Assembly (NCBI GenBank): GCA_963828255.1
Contig: CAWHDZ010000003.1
Location: 160,001 to 224,000 of the forward strand
DNA length: 64,000 bases
Direction of reading: 5' to 3'
Source of the DNA: an uncultured delta proteobacterium
GTDB taxonomy: Bacteria; Myxococcota; Myxococcia; Myxococcales; Anaeromyxobacteraceae
Part shown: one piece after another, positions 14,524 to 36,349 of the stretch
Numbering within the stretch: position 1 is the first letter of the stretch
How the letters are laid out: the number at the start of each line of letters is the position of its first letter
Made by a program: the position numbers and the translations under genes
Notes under the pieces: model-generated
What the model was told of the DNA's origin: nothing
Seen by the model: the letters and a program-made list of their open reading frames with translations, nothing else
Database searches by the model: none

Positions 14524-14564
14524 GAGGTCTCCTGGGGGTTTTTCCATGAACCAAGCTTGGGGAC

Positions 14565-14613: not shown

Positions 14614-14644
14614 GGCAGTGCGCACCGAACCCAGAGGCAAGAAC

Positions 14645-20614: not shown

Positions 20615-21481
20615 ATGAGCCGAGACCCACGATCACGCTTTCATCCCGCTTCCCTGGCCGTCGCGGGCCTGGCCATGTCCCTGCTCGCGACCGCGTGCAG
20701 CAACCAGCCTCCCAGCTGGACCCTGGTCTGGCAGGAGGAGTTCGAAGGGGCTGAGGGCACGTCCCCGAATCCCGCCTACTGGGACCCCGACGTGGGGGGA
20801 GGGGGCTGGGGAAACGACCAGCTCGAGTTCAACACCGCGCGCCCCGAGAACGTGTCGCTCGACGGACTCGGCAACCTCGCCATCACCGCGCGGAAGGAGG
20901 CCTATCAGGGGCGCGCCTACACCTCGGCGCGGATCACCACGCGGGCCAGGTTCGAGCAGGGGCTCGGCCGCTGGGAGGCACGCATACGGCTGCCGTCGGG
21001 CATGGGGATCTGGCCGGCCTTCTGGCTGCTGGGTGCGAGCTATCCCCAGCTGGGCTGGCCGGCCTGCGGCGAGATCGACGTCATGGAGATGCGGGGCCAG
21101 GCGCCGGGCGTGGTGAACGGATCCCTCCACGCGACCGGATACTCCGGCGGCAGTGCCCTCACCGCGCAGTACACCTGCCAGGTCCCGCCGACCTGCGCCA
21201 CTCCGCCCTGCACTCCGCTGTGCCCCTTCGACCAGGACTTCCACGTCTTCGCGGTGGAGGTGGAAGCCAACCGGATCCGGTTCGAGGTGGACGGCGCCGT
21301 CTACCACGAGGTGAGGCAGGAGCTCATGCCCAGGGGCGCCAGCTGGCCCTTCGGCAAGCCCTTCTTCGTGATCCTGAACGTGGCAGTGGGAGGGTCATAC
21401 GTCGGGGCGCCCGACGTTTCCACGGTCTTCCCGCAGACGATGCTCGTCGACTACGTCCGCTACTACCAGCTCGATCGCTGA
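20615..21481 (+). CDS. Glycoside hydrolase family 16 laminarinase-type lipoprotein
   Basis: GWGNDQLE, YTSARI, GIWPAFW, catalytic GEIDVME, ILNVAVGG, VDYVR; lipobox ATAC. Confidence 0.95.
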   Translation: MSRDPRSRFHPASLAVAGLAMSLLATACSNQPPSWTLVWQEEFEGAEGTSPNPAYWDPDVGGGGWGNDQLEFNTARPENVSLDGLGNLAITARKEAYQGRAYTSARITTRARFEQGLGRWEARIRLPSGMGIWPAFWLLGASYPQLGWPACGEIDVMEMRGQAPGVVNGSLHATGYSGGSALTAQYTCQVPPTCATPPCTPLCPFDQDFHVFAVEVEANRIRFEVDGAVYHEVRQELMPRGASWPFGKPFFVILNVAVGGSYVGAPDVSTVFPQTMLVDYVRYYQLDR

Positions 21482-21502: not shown

Positions 21503-22969
21503 ATGGGTTCCACCAGAGAGGCAGAGCACTTCACGACGGCGCCCCGGGATCGGATCTCCTTCCCGCGGAAGCTGGCCTACGGGGCCGGAGCCTTCGTCAA
21601 CAACCTGCTGGCGGCGGCCATCGGCGGGATGCTCATCGTGCTCAACCTGGGGCTGGGCATGAACCCGGCGCTGGTGGGGCTGGTGGCGGCGCTGCCTCGC
21701 CTCCTCGACGCCCTCATCGACCCGGTCATGGGGTACGTCTCCGACCACACCCGCTCGAGGTGGGGACGGCGGCGCCCTTACATCTTCGTGGGGGCCATCG
21801 CGTCGGGAGTCGTCTTCGCCCTGCTCTGGCAGGTGCCGCGGGGCCAGAGCGAGAACTTCTACTTCTGGTTCTTCGTCGTCGGCTCCAACCTCTTCTACGT
21901 CGCCTACACGATCTTCGCCGCGCCCTGGGTCGCGCTGGGCTACGAGCTCACCCCCGACTATCACGAGCGCACCCGGCTCATGGGAGTGCAGAACTTCCTC
22001 GGGCAGATCGCCTACATCGTGTCGCCCTGGTTCCTCTGGTTCATGACCTACAAGACCTGGTTCAAGGATCAGGTCGAGGGCGCCTCGGCCCTGGCCATCG
22101 CCATCGGGGTGCTCGCCGCCTGCCTGGGCGTCCTGCCCGCCATCTTCCTCCGGGAGCGCTTTCAGCACGTGGCGGAGAAGGAGGGGGAGGAGCAGGCCGG
22201 GAAGGGCGGAGTCGGCGAGAGCATCATGGGGTTCCTGAGGGGGATGAAGTCGACCATCTCCTCCGGCCCCTTCCTGAAGCTCTGCGCGGCCACCTTCCTG
22301 GTCTTCAACGGATTCATGCTGATCTCGTCGTTCCAGTTCTACGTCATCATCTACTACGTGTTCCGTGGCGATCAGGCGCGCGGGGCGGAGTACGCCGGGT
22401 ACGCCGGAACCCTCGGGGCCATCTCCACGTTCGCGGTGATCTTCTTCATCACCTGGCTCGGCACGAAGATCGGCAAGCGCAGGGCCTTCTTCGTCTCCAC
22501 CGGGATCTCCATGCTCGGGTACGGGATGAAGTGGTTCGCCTACGACCCGAACCACCCCCTGCTCATCCTGCTCCCCACGCCGTTCCTGGCCTTCGGGCTG
22601 GGGGGGCTCTTCACGCTGATGGGCTCGATGATCGCCGACGTCGTGGACGTGGACGAGGTCCAGTCCCACCAGCGCCGCGAGGGGATGTTCGGCGCGGTCT
22701 TCTGGTGGGTCGTCAAGCTGGGCATGGCGGCCGCGCTCGCCGGAGGAGGCTTCCTCCTCAACATGACCGGGTTCGACGTGGACCTGGGCGGGAACCAGGC
22801 CGAGCGGACCATCACCCTGATGCGGGTCTGCGACGCGTTCATCCCGATGATCACCTCCGGCCTGGCGATCTGGGCCATCGCGACCTACCCGATCACCGAG
22901 GAGGCGGCCCACGAGGTGCGGGCGACGCTGGAAGCCCGACGAGGAACCGGGACGCCCGCCGCCGGATAG
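21503..22969 (+). CDS. MFS transporter, glycoside-pentoside-hexuronide (MelB-like) family
   Basis: DALIDPVMGYVSDHTRSRWGRRRPY, ELTPDYHERT, MIADVVD...RREGMF. Confidence 0.92.
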   Translation: MGSTREAEHFTTAPRDRISFPRKLAYGAGAFVNNLLAAAIGGMLIVLNLGLGMNPALVGLVAALPRLLDALIDPVMGYVSDHTRSRWGRRRPYIFVGAIASGVVFALLWQVPRGQSENFYFWFFVVGSNLFYVAYTIFAAPWVALGYELTPDYHERTRLMGVQNFLGQIAYIVSPWFLWFMTYKTWFKDQVEGASALAIAIGVLAACLGVLPAIFLRERFQHVAEKEGEEQAGKGGVGESIMGFLRGMKSTISSGPFLKLCAATFLVFNGFMLISSFQFYVIIYYVFRGDQARGAEYAGYAGTLGAISTFAVIFFITWLGTKIGKRRAFFVSTGISMLGYGMKWFAYDPNHPLLILLPTPFLAFGLGGLFTLMGSMIADVVDVDEVQSHQRREGMFGAVFWWVVKLGMAAALAGGGFLLNMTGFDVDLGGNQAERTITLMRVCDAFIPMITSGLAIWAIATYPITEEAAHEVRATLEARRGTGTPAAG

Positions 22970-22977
22970 GGAGGTCC

Positions 22978-24627
22978 ATGACCCGGGTGGCCTCGACCTC
23001 CTGTGCGCTCGCAATCCTGGCGCTCGCCGGGTGCACGCCGGAGCGACGGCCCGTGCCGCGCGGCACGCTGGTGGTCTCGCAGGAGAAGCAGGCCTCCTGG
23101 GTGCGGAACTTCAACCCGCTCGCGCCCGGGGGGGCGGAGCTCTGGCCGACCAAGGCCGGCATCTACGAGCCGCTGCTCGTGTTCAACACGGTGAAGGGCG
23201 CGTACGTCCCGTGGCTCGCCGTGGGGCACGAGTGGCGGCCCGGTCACCGGGTTCTCCGCGTGAAGACCCGGGAGGGGGTTCGCTGGTCCGACGGCGCACC
23301 CTTCGGCGCGCGCGACGTGGCCTTCACGTTCGAGCTCCTGAAGAAGTTCCCGGCGCTCGACGCGGGTGGGGTGTGGAGCTTCCTCCAGGAAGTCCGGGTC
23401 GTCGACGCGAGCACGGTCGACTTCGAGTTCTCCAGGGTGTTCGTTCCCGGCCTGGACAGCCTGGCCATCGTGCCCATCGTGCCCGAGCACGTCTGGAGCA
23501 AGGTCGCGGACCCGGTCACCTTCCGCAACGAGAACCCCGTCGCCACCGGGCCCTTCACGGAGGTCCGGGTCTTCAAGAACCAGGTGTACGAGCTGGGGCG
23601 CAACCCGAACTACTGGCAGCCGGGAAAGCCGGCGGTGGAGGCGCTTCGACTCCCCGCCTACCCCGGGAACGATCGGGCCAACCTCGGCCTGGTGTTCGAC
23701 GAGGTGGACTGGGCGGGCAGCTTCGTTCCCGCCATCGAACGCGTCTTCGTGAAGCGCGACCCGGAGCACCACCGGTACTGGTTCCCCCTCATCGGCGGGA
23801 CCATCTTCCTCTACGCCAACACCAGGCGTCCGCCGTTCGACGACGTGCGCGTGCGCAAGGCCATCAGCATGGCCATCGACCGCAAGCGGGTGGTCGACGT
23901 GGCCCTCTTCGGCTACTCGCGCCCCTCCGACGCCACGGGGCTCAGCGACGCCTACGCGGGATGGCGAAACCCCGAGATCGCCGCGACCGGGGACTGGGTG
24001 CGCCACGACGTGTCCGCGGCCAACGCAGCGCTCGACGGGGCTGGCTTCCCGCGGGGAGGGGACGGCATCCGCCGCCTTCCCGACGGCCGCCCCTGGAAGT
24101 TCGAGATCCTCGCCGTGGCTGGATACTCCGACTGGGTGCGGACCGCCCAGGTGGTCGCCGGCGGGCTCAAGGAGATCGGGATCGACGCCACCGTCCGCAA
24201 TTCCGACTACGGGGCCTGGTTCCAGAAGCTCGGGGAGGGGCGCTTCGACCTGGCCCTGGGCTGGTCGGTGGACGGGCCCACGCCCTACACCTTCTACCGG
24301 GGGCTCATGACGACCTCCACGGTGAAGCCCGAGGGCGTCCCGTCGTTCTGGAACTGGCACCGCTACGGGAGCGAGCGGGGAGACGCGCTCGTCGCCGCAT
24401 TCGAGCGTGCGGTGGACCCTGCCGAGCAGCGGCGCCTGTCGGACGAGCTCCAGCGGGCCTTCGTCGCCGAGGCCCCGGCCATCCCGCTCTACCCGCAGCC
24501 GTCCTGGGGGGAGTACAACTCCCGGCGCTTCAAGGGGTTCTCCTCCGCGGACGATCCCTACGCGGCGCTCTCGCCCAACAAGTCCCCGGACTACCTGCTC
24601 GTCCTCACGACGATCGAACCGCGCTAG
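22978..24627 (+). CDS. ABC transporter substrate-binding lipoprotein, family 5 (OppA/DppA-like; likely oligosaccharide-binding)
   Basis: GGAGG RBS; lipobox LAGC; NFNP, IYEPLL, WSDGAPF, TGPF, NPNYW, VRKAISMAIDR. Confidence 0.93.
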   Translation: MTRVASTSCALAILALAGCTPERRPVPRGTLVVSQEKQASWVRNFNPLAPGGAELWPTKAGIYEPLLVFNTVKGAYVPWLAVGHEWRPGHRVLRVKTREGVRWSDGAPFGARDVAFTFELLKKFPALDAGGVWSFLQEVRVVDASTVDFEFSRVFVPGLDSLAIVPIVPEHVWSKVADPVTFRNENPVATGPFTEVRVFKNQVYELGRNPNYWQPGKPAVEALRLPAYPGNDRANLGLVFDEVDWAGSFVPAIERVFVKRDPEHHRYWFPLIGGTIFLYANTRRPPFDDVRVRKAISMAIDRKRVVDVALFGYSRPSDATGLSDAYAGWRNPEIAATGDWVRHDVSAANAALDGAGFPRGGDGIRRLPDGRPWKFEILAVAGYSDWVRTAQVVAGGLKEIGIDATVRNSDYGAWFQKLGEGRFDLALGWSVDGPTPYTFYRGLMTTSTVKPEGVPSFWNWHRYGSERGDALVAAFERAVDPAEQRRLSDELQRAFVAEAPAIPLYPQPSWGEYNSRRFKGFSSADDPYAALSPNKSPDYLLVLTTIEPR

Positions 24628-24637
24628 ACAGGGGCCG

Positions 24638-25617
24638 ATGCGCTTCATCCTCCAACGACTCGGCTTCTACCTGCTCGCGGCCTGGGCGGCGCTCACGCTC
24701 AACTTCTTCCTGCCGCGCCTCATGCCGGGCGACCCCGCCACGGCGCTCTTCGCGCGATTCCGCGGCCAGCTCCGTCCGGAGGCCATGCAGGCGCTTCGCG
24801 AGGCCTTCGGGCTGACCCCGGAGCCGCTCCTGGGGCAATACGTCACCTACCTCGGCCACGTGCTGCGGGGCGACTTCGGCGTCTCGGTGGCCTACTTCCC
24901 GTCCCCCGTCTCCACCATCATCGGCACGGGGCTCCTCTGGACGATGTTCCTGGCCGGGACGGCGGTGGTGGTGAGCTTCGTCCTCGGGACCTGCTCGGCG
25001 TGGCCGCGGCCTGGTGGCGCGGCGGCTGGATGGACACGCTCCTGCCCCCGGCGCTCGCGCTCCTGGGCGCGTTCCCCTACTTCTGGCTGGCCATGGTGGC
25101 CCTCTACGTCTTCGGCTTTCAGCTGGCATGGTTCCCGCTCGGCCACGCCTACGCCGACGACCTGACGCCCGGCCTGAACCTGCCGTTCCTCGCCAGCGTC
25201 CTCCGGCACGCGGCGCTCCCCGTCGGCACGGTGGTGGTGGCGACGCTGGGCGGATGGATGCTCTCCATGCGCAACACCATGGTGTCGGTCCTGGGCTCCG
25301 ACTACGTGAACCTGGCGCGGGCCAAGGGGCTGCCGCCCTCCCGCGTGGTGCTCCGGTACGCGGCCCGCAACGCGCTCCTGCCCAGCGTCACCGGCTTCGG
25401 GATGGCGCTCGGCTTCGTCCTGGGCGGTTCGCTGCTCACCGAGATCATCTTCTCCTACCCCGGGCAGGGATACCTGCTCCTCCAGGCGGTCCGGAGCCAG
25501 GACTACCCGCTCATGCAGGGCATCTTCCTGGTCATCACGCTTGCCGTGCTGGGCGCGAACTGGCTCGTGGACATCGCCTACCTGTGGCTCGACCCGCGCA
25601 CCCGGGAGGGTTCGTGA
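24638..25617 (+). CDS. ABC permease (OppB-like), frameshifted near 24990
   Basis: NFFLPRLMPGDP in one frame continues as AAWWRGG...ARAKGL...DYPLMQG in another; one extra C in GGGAC-CTGCTC restores the ORF. Confidence 0.85.
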
Positions 25618-26555
25618 CCGCGCCTGCAAGCCGCCGGTCCACCGGGGCCAGGGCCTGGCTGGACGCCATCCGGCGCGACCGGAAGGCCAGCGTGGGTGCG
25701 CTGATCCTGGTCCTCTTCGCACTGCTCGCCGTCGTCGGACCGTTCCTCGTGGGCGACCCCACGGCGCTCGTGGCCGTGCCCCTCGAGCCTCCCTCCTCGG
25801 CCCACTGGCTCGGGACCACCGGCCAGGGGCAGGACGTTCTCGCGCAGACCGTGGTGGGGACCCGCGTCTCCCTGGTCATCGGCTTCGGCGTCGGGATCCT
25901 CGTGGTGCTGGTCGGCTCGCTGGTCGGCGTCGCAGCCGGCTACTTCGGCGGGCGGGTGGACGGGATGCTCTCCCTCCTCTTCAACGTCTTCCTGGTGATC
26001 CCCGGGCTGCCGCTGGCCATCGTCCTGGCTGCCTACCTGCCGTCCGGGCCGCTCACCGTGGCGGCGGTGCTGGTCTTCACCGGATGGGCCTGGAACGCCC
26101 GCGTGGTCCGCGGCCAGACCCTTTCCCTGCGCCGGCGCGACTTCGTGCTGGCGTCGGTGGTGAGCGGCGAGTCGAGCCTGCGCATCATCACCCGCGAGAT
26201 CCTTCCCAACATGACCTCCCTCCTCGTGGCCCAGGTCATCGGCAGCAGCGTCTACGCCATCGGCGCGCTGGTGGGGCTCGAGTTCCTCGGCCTGGGCGAC
26301 GTCTCCTCGGTCACCTGGGGGACCAACCTCTACTGGGCCAGCAACGACTCGGCGCTCCTCACCGGCGCCTGGTGGACCTACGTCCCGACCGGCGTCTGCG
26401 TGGCGCTGGTGGGCTTCGGCCTGGTGATGCTCAACTCCGGCTTCGACGAGATCACCAACCCGCGCCTGCAGATGGAGCGCGCCTGGCGCGCGCACCTGGC
26501 CGCGGCGGGGCAGCCTGCGTCCCGGTCGACCCCGGTGGTGGTGCGAGATGGCTGA
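25614..26555 (+). CDS. ABC permease (OppC-like)
   Basis: GTGA overlap; HWLGTTGQGQD, GTRVSL, ILPN, LEFLGLG. Confidence 0.92.
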   Translation: MTAPASRRSTGARAWLDAIRRDRKASVGALILVLFALLAVVGPFLVGDPTALVAVPLEPPSSAHWLGTTGQGQDVLAQTVVGTRVSLVIGFGVGILVVLVGSLVGVAAGYFGGRVDGMLSLLFNVFLVIPGLPLAIVLAAYLPSGPLTVAAVLVFTGWAWNARVVRGQTLSLRRRDFVLASVVSGESSLRIITREILPNMTSLLVAQVIGSSVYAIGALVGLEFLGLGDVSSVTWGTNLYWASNDSALLTGAWWTYVPTGVCVALVGFGLVMLNSGFDEITNPRLQMERAWRAHLAAAGQPASRSTPVVVRDG

Positions 26556-27513
26556 GCCGATCCTGTCGATCCGCGACCTCTGCGTGGACTACGTGTCGGC
26601 GGACGGCCCGGTTCGCGCCCTCGACCACGTCTCCCTGGACCTCATGCCCGGGGAGGTGGTCGGCGTCGCCGGCGAGTCGGGCTGCGGCAAGTCCACCATG
26701 GCCCAGGCCATCCTGAGGATCCTGCCGCCTCCGGCGGTGATCAGCGGTGGCCAGGTGCTCTTCGAGGGGCGCGACCTGCTCGCCATGGACGAGGGCGCGC
26801 TGCGCCGGATGCGCTGGGAGCGGATCGCCATGGTCTTCCAGGGCGCCATGGACGCGCTCAACCCGGTGCTCACGGTGGGCGAGCAGATCGCCGACACCCT
26901 GCGGGCCCACGGTGCGGCCCCCTCCGGGCGTGCCGCGCGGGCGCGGGCCGCGGAGCTGCTCGGGACGGTGGGCATCCACCCCGACCGCCTGGCGAGCTTC
27001 CCGCACCAGCTCTCCGGCGGCATGCGCCAGCGGGTGGGCATCGCCATCGCGCTGGCGCTCGATCCCGCGCTCGTGATCCTCGACGAGCCCACCACCGCCC
27101 TCGACGTCATCGTGGAGCGGGAGATCCTGGAGGAGATCCAGGAGCTGCAGCGGAAGCGCGGGTTCGCCGTGATGTTCATCACGCACGACCTGACGCGGAT
27201 GCTCCAGTTCGCGAACCGCGTGGCGATCTTCTACGCGGCAAGGCTGGTCGAGGTGGCTCCCGCGGGCGAGCTGCGGACGGCGGCGCGCCACCCGTACACG
27301 CAGGGGCTCCTGCGGGCCTTCCCGTCGGTGCACGGCGGCGACGTCGAGCTGTCGAGCATCCCCGGGTCGCCGCCCAGCCTGCGCAGCCCGCCCAGGGGAT
27401 GCCGCTTCCATCCCCGCTGCACCCTCGCCGTGGACCTGTGCCGGGAGCGGGAGCCGGAGCTGGTCGCGCTCGGCCCCGGCCACGCGGCCGCCTGCCACCT
27501 GGTCACAGGCTGA
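26548..27513 (+). CDS. ABC ATPase (OppD-like)
   Basis: GESGCGKS, LSGGMRQR, DEPTTALD, HPYT, GCRFHPRC. Confidence 0.95.
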   Translation: MAEPILSIRDLCVDYVSADGPVRALDHVSLDLMPGEVVGVAGESGCGKSTMAQAILRILPPPAVISGGQVLFEGRDLLAMDEGALRRMRWERIAMVFQGAMDALNPVLTVGEQIADTLRAHGAAPSGRAARARAAELLGTVGIHPDRLASFPHQLSGGMRQRVGIAIALALDPALVILDEPTTALDVIVEREILEEIQELQRKRGFAVMFITHDLTRMLQFANRVAIFYAARLVEVAPAGELRTAARHPYTQGLLRAFPSVHGGDVELSSIPGSPPSLRSPPRGCRFHPRCTLAVDLCREREPELVALGPGHAAACHLVTG

Positions 27514-30500
27514 CGTTCAGGTAGGTCCGGATCTCCCACTCGTTGCCCAGCGCACCCGGGTCGGCTGGATTGGGCAGGAAGCGGTTGGAGAAGCCGTTCA
27601 GCGTCCGGTAGGTGCCGCGCAGGCCGATGCTGGTCTGCGGGGCGGCGATCCACATGGGGATGCCGAAGGAGTAGGAGAGGTCGCCCATGACCTGCATCGG
27701 GTAGGTGAGGTTGAAGTCCTTGTAGTAGTCGTAGGCGCCCCAGTCGTTGAACCGGAGGAAGGTCTGGAAGAGCACCGACCTCCAGGACGCCCGCCCCTCG
27801 AGGCCGTAGCGGTTCACGATGCGCGTGTTCGGTCCGATGGCCTGCTGCTGCCCGCCGTAGATCTTCCCGGCGAACCGGAGGTCGGCGTGGGGCGAACCCA
27901 CGAGCCGCAGCGAGAGTTCCCACACGTTGGCGGGCTCCCAGCCGATGGCGAAGGACACGCGCTCCAGGGTTCCATTCGGGATGAAGGTGGCCGCGTCGCT
28001 GGGGGTCGGCTGGTGACGGAAGGTGAAGTCGAGGCTCGCCGTCAGGAATCCGTCCTCCCGGGCATCGTTGTCCCACTGCCACATCCAGGAGCCCGGCGTC
28101 GGGTCGAAGGCGATGAGCAACTCGCCGGCGATGGTCTCCCGGTTGTCGCGGACGGCGAAGGGGTCATCGAGGACGTTCCGGGCCGGGAGGCCGGAGTTGC
28201 TGGGTCCGGCCCCCTCGATGGGCTTCTGCCAGAGGAAGTTGGGAGCGAACTGGAACAGGCCCAGGTTGTAGGCGACGCCGGTGAGGAAGTTCACCTGGTT
28301 GCCCGAGCCGGAGTCCTTGAGCGTCCACCCGGTGAAGGTGTGGTTCTTCTCCCAGCCCGTGTCCGCCACGAGCCCCATGTAGGCCCCGGCGCCGTACCAG
28401 TGCCAGTTGCCGGACTCGATGGAGAGCTTGGCCTTGCCGCCGAAGGTGTCACCGACGGTGATCACCTTCGATGCCACCTGGTCTGCGACCTGGTAGCGCT
28501 GGCCGACCTTGCCGGTGCTGTTGGGGGCGAAGATGGTGGAGGCCCCGGACTGCACGACGCCGGCCTGGAGCCGGGCGATGCCCCACCGGGCGCTCAGGGA
28601 GAGCGCCGTCTGTCGCTGCTGCTTCTGGGGGACGACCGACGAGGTGTTGAGGGCCGTGTTCACGCCCACCTGCTCCTGGTCCACGAAGGTGAGCTCGTAG
28701 TCGCCGAAGGCACGCGTGTACTTGAGGAAGAGGGCCGGGTTGGCGCCCCACCAGAGCTGCGGGCCGTAGGCCACCTTGAGGCCGTCCAGCGCCTTCTTGC
28801 CGCTCACCACGAAGCCGCTCGGCGCCGCCGCGTTGTAGATGTCGATGTCCCGCTGGTTCCAGGCCGGGTTGTTGGCGTAGTAGGCGTCCTGGTAGAGCGT
28901 GAAGAAGTCGCCCTCGTGGGACCAGGAGATGTGTCCCGTGCGGTAGAAGGCGTTCAGGTTGAACCAGGGCTCGTCCCAGTTGACCTTGGCGTCGTAGACC
29001 TGCACGCGCTCCCGGGCGTTCAGCGTGACCGTGGTGCCGTCCATGCTGGTGACCTGTATCGGGCGTGGCGCCTGGTAGAAGATCTCGTCGATGGGGTTGA
29101 GCGCCACGCCGGCCAGCACGTTGACGGATACGCTGGCGGTGAGCTGCTTCACCGGCTGCACCTCGACCTCCACGAAGAAGGACTCCATGTTGCCGAATCC
29201 CAGGTAGGAGGGGAGCGTCGGCTGCGGATTCTGCTTGTTCGGGGTGGTGATGTTCGTGCCGCCGGTGCTGAAGGTCCAGAACTGGAGCTGGACGTTCTTG
29301 AGCCGCACGCGCTCGGAGAAGGCGGAGGCCAGGCTGGCCTGGTTGGCGCGGCCGGTGACCTCGAGCAGCGCCGGCTCGATGGCGTTGAAGGTGACGCTGA
29401 TCGCGGCGAGGTCGGTGGTGGGCGCGTAGGGCGGGAGCTTGAAGGCCTCCCGCAGCGCGTAGTAGGCGGCGCGGGGATACAGGTTGAAGAGGCCTCGCTC
29501 GTCGGGAGGGCCCTTGGCGCAGAGGCCGAACCACTCCTCGTTCATGTTGTTCTCGCCCTCGACGTAGTCGAACCTGTACCCGCCGTTCGACCAGGAGGCG
29601 TTGGTGTCGTGGACGTCGAGGTTCTCGGTCTGCTTGTACTTCCACCAGCCGTCGCTCCACTGGAAGGTGAAGCCGCCGACGGCGTTGCCGACGCGCCCCT
29701 TGCCGGCCGACTGCTCGTAGATCTCCTGCCAGTTGGCGAGCAGGTAGATGGCCTGGTTGAGGCCGTCCTCGCGCATCTCCTTTGCGTTGAAGGCGTCGGA
29801 GCCGAACTCGGCGAACAGTACCGGGAGGCCGAGCTTGTCCTGGACGACCTGGAAGAGGTCGCCGGCCGACTTGCCGCGGTAGACGTTGGTGCCGAAGACG
29901 TCGAGCCCCTTGCACTCCTGGGCGATGAGGTCGATGTACTGCACGTCACCGTTGGCCATCGTGATCAGGTGGTCGGGATCGCGCGCCTTGGTCTCGCGGA
30001 TGATCTCGCCGAAGAGGGAGTAGAGGTAGCGGGCGCGGCCGGCGTCCCGCTCGCCCACCGGCAGGTTCTCGATCTCGCTGGAGCGCCAGGAGAGGCCGTA
30101 GTTGTTCTCGTTGCCGAGCATCCACATGAGGACGCCGGGCGTGTTCTTGAGCGCGTCCACCATGGCCAGGAACTCCGCCTTGGCGGCGGCGCGGAAGCGA
30201 GGGTCCGAGTAGTCGACCTTGTTCTCCGGGATCCAGACGCCGTCGAGGTTGATGCCGTAGCGCCCCACCGCGTGGTTGACGACGCTGTAGATGCCGTACC
30301 GCTCGAAGATGTGCTTCACCCACTTCGCAGGGATGCCGTCGTAGACGCGGATGGCGTTCACGCCCATGGCCTTCAGGAGCGGCATCTCCCGGGCCAGCGC
30401 CGCCTCGATCATGTCGTCGGGCTGCTTCCACAGGCTGAAGTTGTAGTTCGTGCCGATGGGGAAGTAGTCCCAGTTCACGCCGACGACCATGAAGTCCCGT

Positions 30501-30682
30501 CCGTCGACCTGGATCCGGAAGCCCTTCCCGTCCTTCACGACCTTGGCGTCGCGCCCGCCGCTGGGCGGCAGGCGCGCGGCCTGGGCCGACGCGGCCCCCG
30601 GGCAGAGCAGGAGCAGGGCCACCGCCAGCGCGGGGACTGCCGCGGAGCGCAAACGGGCGAAGATTCTGGGGGACGGATTCAT
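27503..30682 (-). CDS. Exported clan-A glycosidase (GH2 TIM-barrel/GH158-like) fused to predicted outer-membrane beta-barrel
   Basis: Signal peptide; GVNAIRVY, LGNENNY, AEFGSD, FQWSDGWWK, NEEWFG; C-terminal ~600 aa of amphipathic beta-strands ending WEIRTYLNVSL. Confidence 0.8.
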   Translation of the reverse strand: MNPSPRIFARLRSAAVPALAVALLLLCPGAASAQAARLPPSGGRDAKVVKDGKGFRIQVDGRDFMVVGVNWDYFPIGTNYNFSLWKQPDDMIEAALAREMPLLKAMGVNAIRVYDGIPAKWVKHIFERYGIYSVVNHAVGRYGINLDGVWIPENKVDYSDPRFRAAAKAEFLAMVDALKNTPGVLMWMLGNENNYGLSWRSSEIENLPVGERDAGRARYLYSLFGEIIRETKARDPDHLITMANGDVQYIDLIAQECKGLDVFGTNVYRGKSAGDLFQVVQDKLGLPVLFAEFGSDAFNAKEMREDGLNQAIYLLANWQEIYEQSAGKGRVGNAVGGFTFQWSDGWWKYKQTENLDVHDTNASWSNGGYRFDYVEGENNMNEEWFGLCAKGPPDERGLFNLYPRAAYYALREAFKLPPYAPTTDLAAISVTFNAIEPALLEVTGRANQASLASAFSERVRLKNVQLQFWTFSTGGTNITTPNKQNPQPTLPSYLGFGNMESFFVEVEVQPVKQLTASVSVNVLAGVALNPIDEIFYQAPRPIQVTSMDGTTVTLNARERVQVYDAKVNWDEPWFNLNAFYRTGHISWSHEGDFFTLYQDAYYANNPAWNQRDIDIYNAAAPSGFVVSGKKALDGLKVAYGPQLWWGANPALFLKYTRAFGDYELTFVDQEQVGVNTALNTSSVVPQKQQRQTALSLSARWGIARLQAGVVQSGASTIFAPNSTGKVGQRYQVADQVASKVITVGDTFGGKAKLSIESGNWHWYGAGAYMGLVADTGWEKNHTFTGWTLKDSGSGNQVNFLTGVAYNLGLFQFAPNFLWQKPIEGAGPSNSGLPARNVLDDPFAVRDNRETIAGELLIAFDPTPGSWMWQWDNDAREDGFLTASLDFTFRHQPTPSDAATFIPNGTLERVSFAIGWEPANVWELSLRLVGSPHADLRFAGKIYGGQQQAIGPNTRIVNRYGLEGRASWRSVLFQTFLRFNDWGAYDYYKDFNLTYPMQVMGDLSYSFGIPMWIAAPQTSIGLRGTYRTLNGFSNRFLPNPADPGALGNEWEIRTYLNVSL

Positions 30683-31716
30683 GCCAGCCTCCTGACGAAA
30701 AGCGCACTGTCCTGTTCCGGGTAGAGGTGACAGCGAACCCGGCGTCCGGGCGCGATCACGCGAGAGGATGGCTCGCTGGCCGCGCAGGCGTCCACGACCT
30801 CCGCACAGCGGGGGGCGAACGGGCAGCCGGCCGCCGCGTGCTCCTCGCCCGCCGAGCGCCGCTTGCCGCCCCCCGGGGCCGCCACCCCGACCCCGGAGAT
30901 CGAGGCGAGCAGGGCGCGGGTGTACGGGTGCGCCGGCGACTCGAGGAGCGCCCGGCTGGGGCCGTCCTCGACCACGCGCCCCCGGTACAGGACCAGGATC
31001 CGGTCCGCCAGGTAGCGCGCCGCCGCGAGGTCGTGGGTGATGAGGAGGATGGCCAGCCCTCGATCGCGCTTCAGGGTGGCGAGCAGGTTGAGGACGCCCG
31101 TGCGGATGGAGACGTCGAGCATCGAGGTTGGTTCGTCGGCCACGAGCAGGTCGGGCTCCACCGCAAGCGCCCGGGCGATGGCCACGCGCTGGCGCTGGCC
31201 GCCGGAGAGCTCGAAGGGCAGCCGGTCGATGAAGTCCTCGGCGGGCAGGAGGCCGACCGTCCGGAGCAGGTCGAGGGCCCGCTCCCGGAGCAGCCCGCCG
31301 CCGCCGGCGCCGAATCGCCTCAAGGGCGGCTCGAGGTGCTCGGAGACCATGCGCACGGGGTTCAGGGAGCCGAACGGGTCCTGGAAGATCATCTGCACCC
31401 GTCCGCGGTAGGCGAGCGAGGCGGCGCGGGGCTCGCGCTCCAGCACGTCGACTCCGTCGAGCCGGATCTGGCCGGAGTCGGGCTGGTCGAGCCGGAGGAG
31501 CAGTCGCGCGATGGTGCTCTTGCCGCTGCCCGACTCGCCCACCAGTGCGACGGCCTCGCCCCGCTCGACCCGGAACGACACCCCCTCGGCGGCGACGACC
31601 CTGCGGACGGGCCGGAAGGGAGTGCGGGTGACGAAGGCCTTCTCTACGTCCCGCACCTCGAGCAGGTGGGGGGTCGGAGGGAAGCCGGTTTCTGCGCCAC
31701 GAGCCACCCAGATCAC
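30679..31716 (-). CDS. ABC ATPase (OppF-like)
   Basis: GESGSGKS, QMIFQDP, LSGGQRQR, ADEPTSMLD, HPYT, GCPFAPRC; start uncertain. Confidence 0.93.
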   Translation of the reverse strand: MIWVARGAETGFPPTPHLLEVRDVEKAFVTRTPFRPVRRVVAAEGVSFRVERGEAVALVGESGSGKSTIARLLLRLDQPDSGQIRLDGVDVLEREPRAASLAYRGRVQMIFQDPFGSLNPVRMVSEHLEPPLRRFGAGGGGLLRERALDLLRTVGLLPAEDFIDRLPFELSGGQRQRVAIARALAVEPDLLVADEPTSMLDVSIRTGVLNLLATLKRDRGLAILLITHDLAAARYLADRILVLYRGRVVEDGPSRALLESPAHPYTRALLASISGVGVAAPGGGKRRSAGEEHAAAGCPFAPRCAEVVDACAASEPSSRVIAPGRRVRCHLYPEQDSALFVRRLA

Positions 31717-31830: not shown

Positions 31831-34800
31831 TCAGCAGCCCGGAGCCGTGTGGACGTCGATCCGGCGGACGCGACCGGTGCGCTCGAAGACGCTCGCCGAG
31901 GTCTCCCGGTCGAGCGTGTCGCCGGCCACCGGGACGACCCGTCCGTCGGCCAGGGTGACCTCGATCCGGGGCTCGCCGGAGAGGTGGTAGACCACCGGGA
32001 CCTGGCAGTAGGTGAAGGCGAGGGTTCCGGGGGGAAGCTCGATGGCCATCGACTCTCCCCGAACGTCGAAGGGCTCGAAGCGGGCCCGGGAACGGAGGAA
32101 CTCGCTGCGGCGGAGCAGCAGGGGCCGGAACTGCAGGCGCCCCTCGCGGACCCGAGCGCCCAGCTCCCCCAGCCGGGTGATGATCTCCTCCTTCACCTCA
32201 CCGGTCATCCCGGGCTGCTGCGCACCGGCGTGGGCCGGGGTGTGGGAGTAGGGGTCCAGCGGGAAGGCCCCGTACACGGCGGGTGACTTGCCGAGCCCCA
32301 CCACACCGGAGCGGATCCGGTGGTAGCGGTCGGCGAGGCGCCGCTGCAGGGCGGCGGGAGCCCCGGCGTCGGCGGCCGCGAGCGCGCACTCCTGGGTGGC
32401 CACGAGCAGCTTGCCGACCATGTGCCAGTAGATGCTCCCCAGCCCCTCGTACGCGAACATGGTGCCGCTGCGCCCGGTGAAGGCGCGGTGCCGGAACACC
32501 CGCTCGTAGACGTCGAGCACCTGGCCGATCTCCTCCTCGCCGAGGTCCGGGTGGGAGCTGGCCCGGAGCGCCAGCAGGGCCTCCCGGCATCGATCGCCGT
32601 TGGTGAGCCCCTCGGCGAAGCGGAACCTGCCGTCGGCGTCCCGCACCACGATGCGCGGGTCGCCCGAGGCCACGAGCGAGGACAGGAGCGGGGAGGACCG
32701 GACGTCCTTGGCCGGGATCAGGCTCTTCTCGAGGAAGCCGGGGAGCTCGCGGTCGGGGTAGAGCAGGTAGCTGTCCTGGTCGGCCCGGTACATCCGGCTC
32801 CGCGCCAGCGCGGAGAGGACGCCGTCGGCCTGCTTCGGATCGAGGGAGCCCGAGCTCAGCACGGCGACCTGCCCCTCCAGCATCTCGTACAGGTGCTCGA
32901 TGCCGAAGGTCCCGTCCGGCCTCGGCACCAGCACGTTGTAGGCGTGGAAGAGCCCGTCGGGACGGCGGGCCAGGCCGATGGAGTGGGAGAGGAGCCCGGC
33001 GGCCAGCGCCGCGACCCGCAGGACCTCGTCGACCTCGACCGGCGTCCGGCCGGAGAAGCCCCCGCGGTAGACGGCTTCCCGGTAGGTGCTCGCCACCTCG
33101 CCGAGCGCCCGCAGCAGGCGGCCGCGGGAGGCGTCGGACACCTTCGCCGATGAGAGGACGTCGCGGTTGGCCTCCAGCGCGCGCGCCGTGCCATCCAGCC
33201 AGTCGCGCACCTCGTTCGAGAGCGGGACCGATCGGCCGCGCAGCGGCCCGAGCAGGCGGGGCAGGAAGGCCAGGTAGCGCTCCAGGTGGCAGAGCGTCAC
33301 CATCGACACGCCGTAGCCGACCAGGGCGTTGTTGGCGTCGTTCCACTCGGGGCGCTGGGTGTTGAGCCAGATCCCGCCGCCCGGCACGAAGTTGGCGAGC
33401 TTCGCCAGCGCTGCCACCAGGAGCTTCTCGACCAGCCCGACGTGCACGACCGCGCCGGCGTCCTGCAGGAGCTTGCCGTCCGAGCCCAGCTCCGCGCAGA
33501 GCGCCTGGCTCCGCGCGTCCTTCTCGGCGTCGAAGTGGATGGTGGACCGGGGGTTCCGCACGATCTCGGCGAACGGGACGATCTCGTAGGGGACGTCGGC
33601 GTAGGAGAAGATGTCGCGCTCGAGGAGCGCCCGCAACCGCTCGGGGTGGTGGTCGAGCGAGAGCTCGAGGAGCCGGAGCAGGTAGATGATCTGGTGGTCG
33701 CCCCAGTAGCCGATGGTGGACCAGGGATGGCCCGGGTCGGGCGCCTCCCAGTCGATGCCGTCCTTGGTGATGCGGTACGGGTTGTGGCCGTCCACCGTCG
33801 AGGCGTTCACGAACTTGGCGATGATGTTCTCGACGAACTCGGGGTAGCTGAGGGAGAGCGCCTCCCAGTTCTGGAAGATGTCCCGCCAGTTCCCCTCGAA
33901 GTAGAGGACCCGGTTCCCCTCGGCGTCGCGCACCTGGATGTCGAAGCGGTTCCAGGGCCGGCTGGGGTCGCCGTGCCTGCGGCTGAAGGTGAGGGGGAGG
34001 TACTCGTGCGCGAGCCGCTCGAGGTCGGGGTCGCGCAGGGAAGCGGCGCGGACCAGGAGCGCGGGTCCGGACTCGGTCGCGCCGAGCCCGTCGAGGAAGG
34101 CGCGGTGGCGCTCCCCGGTGCGCCGGTTCGAACGGCGGACGAAGGAGGCGAAGTCGGGGCCGGGGACGTCGTAGCCGTGGACGTAGACGCCGCCGCGCAG
34201 GTCGTTGAAGAGGACGTTCCCCACGTGGTGGGCCGAGGAGAGCCGGTCGCCGGTGAGTTGCAGGCCGTCGGTCGCGGCCACGATCTGGAGGAGGTTCCTC
34301 CGCCCGGCCGCCGCGTCCTCCCGGACCTCGGCGAAGAGCCGGGCCGGTTGCCGGAGGTGGGAGCGCAGCTCCACCACCTGCCGCTGGGACCGGTCCACGT
34401 CGGCCACCATCGCCCACCCCTGGGCGCCTCCCCCGGGGAGCGTGCAGCGCGACTCGAGCAGGTAGGCCCCGCGTCGCCCCCGGACCTCCGCCTCGGGACG
34501 TCCCGGGCGCCCGGCGTCGAACGTGGCCAGCCGGTCCGCCGAGAGGTGCACCCGTGGCCGTGGGAGTCCGTGGCTCCACACGGTGCTGGCCTTCAACGAC
34601 TCGCTGGGCTCGGCGCGATCGACCGGCTGGGCGGCCAGCGCGTAGAGCGCGAGCGAGGTCCCGGGCACGATCTCGCTCTTCTTGTAGGCGTCGAGCAGGC
34701 AGCTGAATCCAAGCTGGAGCGCCTCGTCGACGTTGGCGGGCAGGATGTTCAGGAGGCCGTCGAGGATCTCGACCTCGACCGGGGTCCTCCCCCGGTTCTC

Positions 34801-35298
34801 GAGCGCGCACTCCCGGACGAACCCGAACCGGTCGCTCGTCGTCCACTCGTAGCGGAAGGTGATCCCCAGGTCCTGGTTGGTCTCCTCCAGGACGAGCCGG
34901 TTGCCGACGACGTTCTTGTAGAGCCGCCGGGTGACGGAGTAGGTGAGCAGATCGGACCCGCGGAAGGGATGCCAGAGCGACCGGCGTCCCCCGCGCGTCA
35001 CCAGCAGGGAGGTGACCGGCCCCGTGACCCCCGCGCCGTCCACGAGCTTGTCCTCGGTGACGTAGGGGAAGAGGGCCAGTCCCGGGTTCTTCCGCCCCGC
35101 GGTGAGCCCTCCGTTGCTGGCCACGAAGAGCCAGTGGTCGGAGTCGCTGACCACGCTCACCAGGAACGGGCGCATCCCCTGGGCGCCGTCGATGACGTAG
35201 AACGCCTCGCCGAAGGCCTCGGTGAAGCGCCCCTCGACGGGCCGATCCTGCGCGGGAACGGGGCTCCGTCCGAAGAGGATGCCTGCTGGTCGCCGCAT
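31831..35298 (-). CDS. GH149-like beta-1,3-glucan phosphorylase
   Basis: ~1155 aa, no signal peptide; ALFPYVTEDK, FSRRHGDPSRPWN, EGNWRDIFQNWEAL, QRPEWNDANNALVG, YEGLGSIYWHMV, GAFPLDPYSHTP, AQQPGMTG motifs; GGAG RBS. Confidence 0.85.
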   Translation of the reverse strand: MRRPAGILFGRSPVPAQDRPVEGRFTEAFGEAFYVIDGAQGMRPFLVSVVSDSDHWLFVASNGGLTAGRKNPGLALFPYVTEDKLVDGAGVTGPVTSLLVTRGGRRSLWHPFRGSDLLTYSVTRRLYKNVVGNRLVLEETNQDLGITFRYEWTTSDRFGFVRECALENRGRTPVEVEILDGLLNILPANVDEALQLGFSCLLDAYKKSEIVPGTSLALYALAAQPVDRAEPSESLKASTVWSHGLPRPRVHLSADRLATFDAGRPGRPEAEVRGRRGAYLLESRCTLPGGGAQGWAMVADVDRSQRQVVELRSHLRQPARLFAEVREDAAAGRRNLLQIVAATDGLQLTGDRLSSAHHVGNVLFNDLRGGVYVHGYDVPGPDFASFVRRSNRRTGERHRAFLDGLGATESGPALLVRAASLRDPDLERLAHEYLPLTFSRRHGDPSRPWNRFDIQVRDAEGNRVLYFEGNWRDIFQNWEALSLSYPEFVENIIAKFVNASTVDGHNPYRITKDGIDWEAPDPGHPWSTIGYWGDHQIIYLLRLLELSLDHHPERLRALLERDIFSYADVPYEIVPFAEIVRNPRSTIHFDAEKDARSQALCAELGSDGKLLQDAGAVVHVGLVEKLLVAALAKLANFVPGGGIWLNTQRPEWNDANNALVGYGVSMVTLCHLERYLAFLPRLLGPLRGRSVPLSNEVRDWLDGTARALEANRDVLSSAKVSDASRGRLLRALGEVASTYREAVYRGGFSGRTPVEVDEVLRVAALAAGLLSHSIGLARRPDGLFHAYNVLVPRPDGTFGIEHLYEMLEGQVAVLSSGSLDPKQADGVLSALARSRMYRADQDSYLLYPDRELPGFLEKSLIPAKDVRSSPLLSSLVASGDPRIVVRDADGRFRFAEGLTNGDRCREALLALRASSHPDLGEEEIGQVLDVYERVFRHRAFTGRSGTMFAYEGLGSIYWHMVGKLLVATQECALAAADAGAPAALQRRLADRYHRIRSGVVGLGKSPAVYGAFPLDPYSHTPAHAGAQQPGMTGEVKEEIITRLGELGARVREGRLQFRPLLLRRSEFLRSRARFEPFDVRGESMAIELPPGTLAFTYCQVPVVYHLSGEPRIEVTLADGRVVPVAGDTLDRETSASVFERTGRVRRIDVHTAPGC

Positions 35299-35340
35299 GT
35301 CACTCCAGGGGGGCTTGCCCGGTCCACCGGAACGGGCGTA

Positions 35341-35390
35341 ACTTTGTTCGCCAACAGAACAAACTAAGCGGCGCCCACTCGAACTGTCAA
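35341..35390 (-). promoter_or_regulatory. sigma70 promoter TTGACA-N18-TAGTTT overlapped by ROK operator copy 4 (35341-35365)
   Basis: ACTTTGTTCG-CCAAC-AGAACAAACT; TGTCAA at 35385-35390; lies in the divergent GH149/GH17 intergenic region. Confidence 0.8.
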
Positions 35391-35434
35391 GGCAGCGGGC
35401 AGGACGGCGGGTGGGGCGAAGCCAGGAGGAACCC

Positions 35435-36349
35435 GTGTCGTTCCCCAGCAAGAATCGCCTGATGGACCGGCCGGTCACCGGCGCTGCCCGTCTCGAGTTC
35501 CAGGGCCTGGGATTGCCCGGGCTGGTCGAGGCCTTCCGGAGGACCCTCCACGAGCGGATCCACGGAATCTGCTTCAGCGCCTACGTGGAGGGGCAGAGCC
35601 CGGACCTCCAGACCCAGCTCTCCGCCGACCAGATCCGGGAGCGGATGGAGATCGTCCGCCCGGCCGTGAGGTGGGTCCGGACCTTCTCCTGCACCGACGG
35701 CAACGAGCACGCCCCCCGCATCGCCCACGATCTGGGGCTGAAGACCCTGGTGGGGGCCTGGCTGGGAACGGACCGGGAGAAGAACGAGGCCGAGATCCAG
35801 GGTCTCGTCGAGGTGGCTCGGGCAGGGCACGCCGACATGATCGCGGTGGGCAACGAGGTGCTCTACAGGGAGGACCTGGCCGAGGAGGAACTCGTCGAGG
35901 CGATCCGGCGGGTGAAGGACGCCGTGCCCGGGATCCCGGTCGGCTACGTGGACGCGTACTACCTCTTCACGGGCCACCCCCGGATCGTGGATGCCTGCGA
36001 CGTGCTGCTGGTGAACTGCTACCCGTTCTGGGAGTACTGCAGCCTCGAGCACGCGCTCGGCTACATGCAGGAGATGGTCGCCCGGGTGGAGCGGGTGGGC
36101 CGCGGCAAGCGGATCGCGATCAGCGAGACCGGCTGGCCGAGCGCCGGGGCGCCCCTGGGCGGCGCCGTCCCCTCGGAGGAGAACGCGCTCCTCTACTTCC
36201 TCAACACGGTCAAGTGGACCCGGGAGGCCGGGATCGAGGCCTTCTACTTCTCCGCTTTCGACGAGGAGTGGAAGGCGGGCCACGAGGGGGACCGGGGCGT
36301 CTACTGGGGCCTCTGGGACCAGCGCGGGAAGCTCAAGTATGGTGCTTGA
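35435..36349 (+). CDS. Glycoside hydrolase family 17 (cytoplasmic)
   Basis: AGGAGG RBS then GTG; VRTFS, AVGNEV, NCYPFWE, ISETGWPS, AFDEEWK. Confidence 0.9.
   Translation: MSFPSKNRLMDRPVTGAARLEFQGLGLPGLVEAFRRTLHERIHGICFSAYVEGQSPDLQTQLSADQIRERMEIVRPAVRWVRTFSCTDGNEHAPRIAHDLGLKTLVGAWLGTDREKNEAEIQGLVEVARAGHADMIAVGNEVLYREDLAEEELVEAIRRVKDAVPGIPVGYVDAYYLFTGHPRIVDACDVLLVNCYPFWEYCSLEHALGYMQEMVARVERVGRGKRIAISETGWPSAGAPLGGAVPSEENALLYFLNTVKWTREAGIEAFYFSAFDEEWKAGHEGDRGVYWGLWDQRGKLKYGA

Follow-up and report, generated by a model that had tools for sequence, protein, structure and literature searches.

A predicted fusion of a clan GH-A glycosidase to a 24-stranded outer-membrane beta-barrel, and its probable part in TonB-independent beta-1,3-glucan uptake

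Few glycans of the sea and of soils are as abundant as laminarin and related beta-1,3-glucans, and current models for their uptake by diderm bacteria rest on SusC/SusD pairs or other TonB-dependent receptors. Passages of the paper that founded family GH149 describe type I clusters without an outer-membrane transporter, and some Bacteroidetes clusters of GH149 and other carbohydrate-active enzymes (CAZymes) without susCD pairs (PMC5827456). The nearest concept in print to the protein described here is the MFS-GH17 fusion of Formosa (FbGH17B), in which a transporter and a beta-1,3-glucan-active enzyme share one polypeptide for laminarin utilisation; according to a part of the article that reported it, a transporter-CAZyme fusion had not been described before (PMC6246565). 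FbGH17B joins an inner-membrane, alpha-helical MFS transporter to a GH17 domain, whereas the present protein is predicted to join an outer-membrane beta-barrel to a clan GH-A domain. It is encoded at 27503..30682 on the minus strand of a 64,000-nucleotide stretch (hereafter, the window) from an uncultured delta proteobacterium of the Anaeromyxobacteraceae (assembly GCA_963828255.1, contig CAWHDZ010000003.1, positions 160,001 to 224,000). On the evidence set out below, the protein is probably the outer-membrane component of a TonB-independent uptake system for a beta-1,3-glucan such as laminarin, curdlan or fungal-wall glucan.

Full-text literature searches, of incomplete coverage, turned up no account of an outer-membrane barrel that carries a fused glycosidase. 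A term search of the available text of a review of glycoside transporters (PMC13543919) gave no mention of such a fusion, and one of the available text of the GH158(Pro) paper (PMC13195107) gave no outer-membrane or porin term. As modelled, the protein family adds a new architectural variant to the glycan channels of the outer membrane; it is widespread, unannotated and testable, and it is a candidate to fill the transporter gap in GH149 clusters. If true, this would account for loci in which an outer-membrane transporter is apparently missing, add a second route of polysaccharide import that is energy-independent and possibly driven by hydrolysis, and change genome-based predictions of laminarin consumers.

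The interval 27503..30682 is filled exactly by one open reading frame (ORF) of 1059 codons in the ORF list and its translation, with the stop codon at 27503-27505; the 1059-residue product is predicted to be a secreted glycosidase with a C-terminal outer-membrane barrel. The GC content of third codon positions is 0.96 in this minus-strand ORF versus 0.61 in the shadow ORF that overlaps it on the plus strand; the window as a whole has about 70% GC. The open frame extends upstream of the ATG to 1430 codons in total, about 370 of which lie over the preceding ATPase gene. The ATG at 30682 is the likely start, because AGGAGG stands 6 nt before it, it overlaps the stop of the ATPase gene as ATGA, it opens a signal peptide, and homologues align from residue 1. 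The signal peptide (residues 1-33, 30584..30682, minus strand; MNPSPRIFARLRSAAVPALAVALLLLCPGAASA) was judged by eye with the AXA rule, and its presence bears out a preliminary description of this stretch made from the letters alone. The predicted signal peptidase I site follows ASA (ASA/Q). The protein is not a predicted lipoprotein: Cys27, in the context LLLC-P, has no lipobox, and the family consensus is without Cys at this place. In Bacteroidota orthologues the signal ends in FAQ or YAQ.

A homologue search with the protein returned 5445 matches at E<=0.001 among 8000 scored candidates. The best 120 are 52-87% identical to it at 65-100% query coverage, and most have 1000-1100 residues. At source they are named 'glycosidase', 'beta-galactosidase' or 'hypothetical protein', in keeping with the earlier remark that such proteins are usually annotated merely as glycosidases. 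A search of the organism's own genome found no paralogue, the gene itself being the one match. The nearest clusters in the ESM Atlas are nameless hypothetical proteins (0.94-0.96) and DUF6029 (0.92), which serve as leads only.

The N-terminal glycosidase domain comprises residues ~44-420 (29423..30553, minus strand), as delimited from Pfam, AlphaFold2 (AF2), Foldseek, VIA-align and conservation. In the AF2 model of the full-length protein (79 homologues; predicted local distance difference test score, pLDDT, 81.9) residues 47-413 form a (beta/alpha)8 barrel with strands alternating with helices; the fold and its structural neighbours agree with the clan-A TIM (triose-phosphate isomerase) barrel that had been proposed. 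Pfam returned a partial match to Glyco_hydro_2_C for the full protein (2.2e-7, 30.7 bits, residues 94-245) and, at E<=1, nothing further except Glyco_hydro_72 (0.0027) and DdrB (0.21). NCBIfam gave weak LacZ-type matches alone, far under cutoff. In GH2 enzymes, sugar-binding and immunoglobulin (Ig)-like beta-sandwich domains precede the TIM barrel; such N-terminal domains are not present here, as the TIM barrel begins about 10 residues past the signal peptide.

In clan GH-A the acid/base glutamate lies in an N-E motif after strand 4 and the nucleophile glutamate after strand 7. Residues N191, E192, E292, F293 and G294 of the protein are invariant in 79 of 79 aligned homologues, and in the AF2 model E192 follows strand 184-189 (GNENNY) while E292 lies inside strand 288-294. 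On the clan pattern, and on the residues Glu143 and Glu229 of GH158(Pro) as given in part of PMC13195107, Glu192 (nt 30107-30109, minus strand) is the predicted acid/base and Glu292 (nt 29807-29809, minus strand) the predicted nucleophile. They belong to the two motifs singled out in the preliminary description, LGNENNY at residues 189-195 and AEFGSD at residues 291-296.

Assignment of the domain to one family is less clear-cut. A Foldseek search of the PDB with the enzyme domain placed the endo-laminarinase BuGH158 of Bacteroides uniformis first (2.5e-13), followed by GH158(Pro) and the laminarinase LaGH157. VIA-align gave what amounts to a tie between GH157 (Z 27.6), GH2 glucuronidases (Z 27.4) and GH158 (Z 26.2), with Z-scores of 25-27.6 and 285-312 aligned residues across GH157, GH2, GH158 and GH5 enzymes. 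CAZy families are sequence-based, and here the family profile matched a GH2 enzyme at 1.6e-5, BuGH158 at 3.2e-4 and GH158(Pro) at 3.3e-3; a single-sequence phmmer search reached GH158(Pro) weakly, at E 0.09. What the protein has in common with the GH157 and GH158 endo-beta-1,3-glucanases (LaGH157, BuGH158 and GH158(Pro)) is the TIM barrel of clan GH-A, an acid/base in an NE motif, an E nucleophile motif and the type of locus, but it is no more than 17-22% identical to them, with weak E-values. The GH158 architecture, as set out in part of PMC13195107, is a TIM barrel followed by a C-terminal Ig-like domain. This Ig-like domain is not present in the AF2 model of the fusion protein, in which two linker helices and a 24-stranded barrel replace it. 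Taken together, the modelled N-terminal domain is a catalytically intact clan GH-A retaining glycosidase to which GH2, GH157 and GH158 are about equally near in structure, and from which GH2 and GH158 are about equally distant in sequence. From the structural neighbours and the gene context we infer a specificity for beta-1,3-glucan.

A near-identical orthologue of the crystallised LaGH157 (E 9e-274 to PDB 9fz9) was encountered in one of the orthologous loci (L046:16606-18345), 5.5 kb downstream of the orthologue of the fusion protein, with no SusC/D in 19 kb. The locus of the crystallised enzyme (PDB 9fz9/9g4n) thus probably contains a barrel protein of the present type. Pairwise identity between the LaGH157 orthologue and the enzyme domain is 22%, and the motifs DGWWK and EEWFG are common to both.

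The glycosidase is followed by a linker of residues ~421-458 (29309..29422, minus strand), which DSSP assigns in both models to two helices, the second (437-458) running straight into strand 1. The remainder, residues 459-1059 (27506..29308, minus strand), is a predicted 24-stranded transmembrane beta-barrel, on the combined evidence of AF2, Foldseek, VIA-align and loop asymmetry. Modelling of residues 415-1059 alone with 68 different sequences gave a closed barrel of 24 long antiparallel strands (pLDDT 83.3; predicted template modelling score 0.78), and the same 24 strands are found in the full-length model, which was built on a different alignment. A large barrel had been proposed in the preliminary description, and all nine of the peptides quoted there as strands fall within AF2 strands (S2, S3, S8, S10, S14, S17, S20, S23 and S24). 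The C-terminal ~600 residues are accordingly predicted to form a closed transmembrane barrel and not a soluble beta-sandwich or propeller. The C-terminal 616 residues alone have no Pfam match at E<=10 and no NCBIfam match. A plug, which the preliminary description could not recognise, is also absent from the present results, with no Pfam match to Plug (PF07715) or TonB_dep_Rec (PF00593) in the protein at E<=1 and a TIM barrel at the N-terminus; a TonB box could escape inspection by eye.

Structure searches with the C-terminal domain consistently returned membrane barrels. The top 50 Foldseek matches in the PDB are all outer-membrane barrels, led by BtuB3 (3e-10) and AlgE (5e-10) and including BtuB, MOMP, Occ porins, FepA, FimD and chitoporin, with low TM-scores of 0.3-0.4 to the solved barrels. 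A VIA-align search of 48,161 representative chains, made with no Foldseek pre-filter, likewise had membrane beta-barrels in all 50 listed rows. The highest scores were for AlgE (Z 15.8, 310 residues aligned, root-mean-square deviation 6.6) and MOMP (Z 15.2). Two ushers with 24 strands matched over the whole domain (model residues 44-645), FimD with 356 residues aligned (Z 13.2) and PapC with 360 (Z 13.0). The 22-stranded TonB-dependent transporters gave partial fold matches at Z 10-11, and maltoporin (Z 13.4), chitoporin (Z 11.9) and the barrels of PgaA, PelB and BcsC are also listed.

The strand connections of the model fall into two classes. Those on the side of the two chain ends measure 2, 3, 6, 2, 2, 2, 2, 21, 2, 2 and 12 residues (median 2), whereas those on the opposite side measure 17, 34, 41, 7, 18, 32, 26, 29, 26, 7, 16 and 17 residues (median ~22). 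The model has in this respect the classic asymmetry, with turns that are short on the periplasmic side and loops that are long on the outer side. Strand amphipathicity was dropped as evidence for the barrel, since the mean even/odd hydropathy difference of the 24 C-terminal strands (2.25) is matched by that of the soluble TIM-barrel strands (2.38). What stands above chance is the predicted fold in combination with the one-sided loop lengths, not the amphipathic alternation.

The most conserved positions of the C-terminal domain lie in loops rather than in strands and are rich in aromatic and acidic residues; from this pattern, we read the loops as putative glycan-contacting surfaces. Conserved loops include NPIDEIFY (residues 529-536), RTGH.SWSHEGDFF (residues 581-594) and DDPFAVR (residues 839-845). 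In the last strand, which is amphipathic, a Tyr is conserved at position -5, and the C-terminal residue of the fused family is I, L, M or V, being aromatic in 0/68 and 0/79 sequences of the two alignments. Residues 860-880 (window ~28041-28103, minus strand) form a Trp-rich, nearly invariant segment of 21 residues (DPTP..W.W.WDND..ED) on the side otherwise occupied by 2-residue turns, and it is kept in relatives that consist of the barrel only. This segment may serve as an exit gate or as a platform for sugar, or it may be two strands that went unrecognised.

The gene lies within a 28-kb island for beta-1,3-glucan utilisation, with which it is co-oriented and which is built around two converging operons. 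The minus-strand operon runs in the order GH149, DppF-type ATPase and fusion protein. Its first gene (31831..35478, likely start near 35298) encodes a GH149 beta-1,3-glucan phosphorylase, as judged from NCBIfam GH149_beta_1_3 (1495 bits versus a cutoff of 1150) and PDB 6hq6 (E=0). The second (30679..31716) encodes a DppF/OppF-type ABC ATPase (Pfam ABC_tran and oligo_HPY; NCBIfam), which, judging from the junction sequence, is coupled translationally to the fusion gene through ATGA. The converging plus-strand operon opens with a lipoprotein (17925..19346, lipobox LAAG-C22) belonging to no known family and made up of CBM-like (carbohydrate-binding module-like) and Big_2-like domains, identified from its translation and from BLASTP to the Bacteroidota gene discussed below. 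It continues with a ROK-family regulator or kinase with a winged-helix domain (19343..20605, start approximate; Pfam ROK 4e-56 and HTH domains), a GH16 endo-beta-1,3-glucanase whose N-terminus marks it as a lipoprotein (20615..21481; LATA-C; Pfam GH16 9.4e-17) and an MFS_2 sugar transporter of GPH type (21503..22969; Pfam MFS_2 2.9e-63). The operon ends with an Opp/Dpp-type ABC importer (23000..27513, starts approximate), made up of an SBP_bac_5 binding protein (~23000-24627; 4.5e-67), a permease region (~24630-26555; BPD_transp_1 and OppC_N) and a DppD-type ATPase (26548-27513; ABC_tran and oligo_HPY). The DppD-type gene converges on the fusion gene with an 11-bp overlap.

The DppD-like and DppF-like ATPases of apparently one Opp-type importer are therefore encoded on opposite strands with the barrel gene between them, and this split of a single importer ties the two operons functionally. 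The same ATPase types flank the orthologous gene in two further loci (L005 and L024). Beyond the GH149 gene lie three GH17-like genes on the plus strand (35411-36349, 36339-37280 and ~37273-38250), recognised by Pfam GH17 in the first two cases and described further from their N-termini. The first two (35411-37280) encode no signal peptide and so appear to be cytoplasmic enzymes; the third has a lipoprotein-like N-terminus and no Pfam or NCBIfam match, and its tblastn matches fall in the same places as those of the second. Cytoplasmic GH17 enzymes also occur in the type II clusters of the GH149 paper, in the portion describing these (PMC5827456). At its outer edge the island has a GH30 gene (10242-11801, plus strand; Pfam GH30 1e-75) and a GH81 endo-beta-1,3-glucanase gene (11878-15354, minus strand; Pfam GH81 N- and C-terminal domains, 2.8e-47 and 5.7e-97). 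Among the 53 window ORFs scanned there is no Plug or TonB-receptor domain and no GT2 synthase.

A scan of a genome collection yielded at least 593 relatives, and the best 80 loci were inspected. They come from Gemmatimonadota, Krumholzibacteria, Eisenbacteria, Myxococcota, Ignavibacteria, Rhodothermales and many Bacteroidota, every named carrier belonging to a diderm lineage; isolates of Flavobacterium, Algoriphagus, Cloacibacterium and Flavilitoribacter among them provide culturable carriers. In a sample of Bacteroidota and Ignavibacteria (11 loci, 88 ORFs) the gene is followed in all 11 by a gene for a protein of 440-970 residues and then by GH16. Around these loci are GH149-sized genes, GH17, GH30, GH3, MFS_2 and hybrid two-component regulators, with SusD in 1/11, TonB receptors in 0/11 and GT2 in 0/11. 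The Bacteroidota downstream protein and GH16 are lipoproteins with acidic residues after the Cys. Such an acidic motif is the signal for surface export of lipoproteins in Bacteroidota, and from it we read both proteins as probably exported to the surface. The downstream lipoprotein matches the window lipoprotein over its full length in BLASTP (31-32% identity; E 2e-58 and 1e-66).

The association is not confined to these lineages. In 10 loci from other phyla (80 ORFs) the partners are GH1, ROK, GH16, MFS_2, GH3, Opp-type ABC importers and GH149-sized genes, with a TonB receptor and GT2 in 1/10 each. Of 53 loci that span 12 kb or more, 39 have the lipoprotein, 44 GH16, 26 MFS and 23 GH149. Orthologues in Bacteroidota, Ignavibacteria, Gemmatimonadota and Krumholzibacteria keep the same partners, and the set of barrel protein, lipoprotein and lipoprotein GH16 recurs in at least 5 phyla. 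A complex prediction for the barrel with the N-terminal 279 residues of the lipoprotein, a guessed part, gave no answer (score 0.00) and counts neither way.

The barrel is also found apart from the enzyme. A barrel profile matched 612 clusters (50% identity) at E<=1e-3 and 227 at E<=1e-30, made up of fused forms, fragments and barrel-only proteins of 560-660 residues. Ten of the barrel-only relatives were fetched: seven have a signal peptide evident by eye, all keep the conserved loop motifs, and the C-terminal residue is F in nine and Y in one. Their loci, on marine and other metagenome contigs, carry GH16, a GH149-sized gene, GH1, glucokinase, LacI and an Opp-type ABC importer, and one barrel-only gene is followed by that of a lipoprotein with two CBM-like repeats. 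The link of the barrel to the breakdown of beta-1,3-glucan thus holds whether or not the enzyme is attached, which argues that the barrel is itself the transport element. Barrel-only relatives of 580-610 residues were seen in laminarin-type loci L086, L089, L091 and L106.

In these respects the system resembles SusC/SusD loci. The barrel gene stands at the head of a glycan locus and is directly followed by that of a surface lipoprotein, and the rest of the locus supplies a GH16 lipoprotein at the surface, glycosidases for periplasm and cytoplasm, an MFS transporter and a hybrid two-component or ROK regulator. In contrast to SusC, the fusion protein has no plug, TonB-receptor domain or carboxypeptidase-like N-terminal extension; its model has 24 strands instead of 22, a glycosidase is fused at its N-terminus, and energy coupling is presumably absent. 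The partner lipoprotein differs from SusD in consisting of beta-sandwich/Ig-like domains, with weak Big_2 matches only. By analogy, the barrel and lipoprotein seem to occupy the place of SusC and SusD, TonB receptors being almost never nearby; the preliminary description had the barrel standing in for a missing SusC, and the neighbourhood conserved across phyla, barrel then lipoprotein, speaks in its favour.

Other glycan channels are less close. The sugar-specific porins LamB/ScrY, ChiP and CymA are likewise TonB-independent, dedicated channels encoded in catabolic operons beside ABC importers, but they have 14-18 strands, no fused enzyme, no dedicated lipoprotein partner and no detectable sequence relation to the present barrel. 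Of the solved barrels, the ushers FimD and PapC are the sole ones with its strand number and align over the whole domain (356-365 residues, Z 13). The fusion protein lacks the plug insert and the N- and C-terminal domains of ushers, and pilin and chaperone genes are not nearby; the likeness is thus one of fold only.

The orientation of the barrel bears on the order of events. Both chain ends share their side of the barrel with the short turns, and the long loops lie opposite, so that by the usual rule for outer-membrane proteins the enzyme is placed at the periplasmic exit. We regard the periplasmic location as probable, and with it import followed by cleavage becomes likelier than the reverse. 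Of the cleave-and-import channel in the preliminary description, the predicted barrel with an enzyme of its own therefore stands, while the order is probably reversed to import-then-cleave on the lengths of turns and loops.

A possible mechanism can be outlined as follows. Glucan would be captured by the surface CBM/Ig-like partner lipoprotein and nicked by the surface GH16 and, in this organism, also by the secreted GH81. A single glucan chain or oligosaccharide could then slide through the barrel along the conserved aromatic and acidic loops, and the fused glycosidase at the periplasmic exit, joined to the periplasmic end of strand 1, would cut the emerging chain. Such cutting would keep the gradient downhill and stop back-sliding, acting as a sink or ratchet that possibly replaces TonB energy. 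MFS_2 and the Opp-type ABC importer would carry the fragments into the cytoplasm, where the GH149 phosphorylase and the cytoplasmic GH17-like enzymes would degrade them. More speculatively, the proteins could conceivably represent a new class of TonB-free glycan importer, in which a lipoprotein-fed 24-stranded barrel threads a single beta-1,3-glucan chain and hydrolysis rectifies its diffusion (a hydrolytic ratchet); barrel-only relatives would then be the ancestral laminarin porin, and together they would be the outer-membrane transporter noted as missing from GH149 and susCD-less CAZyme clusters. We put this larger proposal forward tentatively, as more likely wrong than right.

The most serious competitor to import with periplasmic cleavage is that the enzyme is displayed at the surface, the barrel mainly anchoring and exporting it with the linker helix in the lumen as in type Va autotransporters, so that glucan is cleaved outside and the products enter through the same barrel, in the order of the preliminary description. 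The order of passenger, helix and barrel and the 22-residue helix leading into strand 1 do resemble autotransporters, and BuGH158 is called a cell-surface glycosidase in the title of PMC7157763. One relative (P0214, 1218 residues) has an extra N-terminal CBM4_9 before the glycosidase and barrel. Known autotransporter barrels, however, have 12 strands, half as many as the 24 of the model, and one helix would leave so wide a lumen unfilled; in other large barrels, namely ushers, LptD, BamA, PgaA and BcsC, the N-terminal domains are periplasmic. The loci moreover already encode surface GH16 lipoproteins, and barrel-only relatives occur in the same kind of locus without a passenger, so that surface display is in our estimation unlikely, though it deserves to be kept in mind. 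Much less probable is that the protein is a secretion pore resembling AlgE, PgaA or BcsC, through which the cell would export a beta-1,3-glucan exopolysaccharide of its own, trimmed in the periplasm by the fused glycosidase in the manner of PgaB, BcsZ or AlgL. AlgE is the top structural match in VIA-align and scores 5e-10 in Foldseek, PgaA, PelB and BcsC are also listed, and PgaA and BcsC carry large N-terminal periplasmic domains on a glycan-handling barrel. Export barrels of this group have 16-18 strands and synthase partners, though, whereas the present context is catabolic and free of a conserved synthase: GT2 was found in 1/10 non-Bacteroidota and 0/11 Bacteroidota/Ignavibacteria loci and in none of the scanned window ORFs, which makes an export role unlikely, and the conserved partners are GH16, GH149, GH1, GH3 and GH30 enzymes, importers of sugar, and regulators of the ROK, LacI or hybrid two-component type. 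Export pores that carry periplasmic domains at the N-terminus are nevertheless well known, as are glycosidases of export pathways (abstracts of PMC9384988 and PMC5933820).

A more basic doubt is whether there is a membrane barrel at all, or a soluble beta-rich module at the C-terminus of an ordinary secreted or periplasmic glycosidase that modelling has closed artefactually. No curated family covers the region, its amphipathic alternation is no stronger than that of the TIM-barrel strands, and TM-scores to solved barrels are just 0.3-0.4. Yet two AF2 runs on different alignments agree on the 24 strands with good confidence, every one of the 50 rows in both structure searches is a membrane barrel and the full-range matches are 24-stranded ushers, loop length differs strongly between the two sides, F or Y is the last residue of the barrel-only relatives (10/10), most of which begin with an evident signal peptide (7/10), and all named carriers among the best 80 loci are diderm. 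We consider such an artefact a shade less probable even than an export pore. Least probable of the alternatives is a translocon in the manner of Slam proteins, which translocate lipoproteins to the cell surface: here the barrel would put the neighbouring lipoprotein on the surface, with glucan imported elsewhere. The adjacency of the barrel and lipoprotein genes in Bacteroidota, and their co-occurrence across phyla, would fit; export of a lipoprotein would, however, leave the fused glycosidase and the conserved aromatic and acidic loops unexplained, and no other conserved outer-membrane glucan transporter was found in the inspected loci.

Several observations weigh against the assignment of the protein to beta-1,3-glucan import. 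The place of the protein in the outer membrane, its action as a pore, its substrate and its activity as an enzyme have the standing of predictions, and the turn/loop rule is the single ground for the sidedness of the enzyme. The sequence does not place the glycosidase in a beta-1,3-glucanase family, the profile match to GH2 (1.6e-5) being better than those to GH158 (3e-4 to 3e-3 by profile and 0.09 with the single sequence), and the TM-scores of the barrel are low. The non-aromatic C-terminus of the fused family is atypical for substrates of the beta-barrel assembly machinery of Proteobacteria, the direct entry of the 22-residue helix into strand 1 is compatible with surface display, and modules such as the CBM4_9 of P0214 are commoner in extracellular enzymes. 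A 24-stranded pore without a plug could be leaky. Finally, the distribution of the gene among relatives is patchy, with 4/13 genomes of the same genus and 0/27 genomes of other genera carrying it.

Contigs from two metatranscriptome libraries cover part of the gene at ~95-98% identity, and one RNA-library contig of 321 nt spans the junction between the ATPase gene and the fusion gene (30491-30811). The coverage is patchy and DNA carry-over is possible, so that these contigs are a weak hint of expression.

The GH81 enzyme of the window (11878-15354, minus strand) has an N-terminal cysteine-rich region resembling MXAN_6577, which is unusual for GH81 (NCBIfam 90.6 bits, cutoff 100). Among the relatives of the fusion protein, P0129 (1351 residues) is longer by about 300 residues, which precede the glycosidase and barrel. 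In a subfamily of more divergent fused proteins, the neighbours are GH30, CBM4_9, MFS_2, GH16 and GH149-sized genes. Directly after the barrel gene of this subfamily there is a conserved ORF of ~215-230 residues without a Pfam match, located at L083:8407-9069, L130:7914-8612, L150:9785-10432, L152:9778-10416 and L153:7826-8479, which may encode another small partner.

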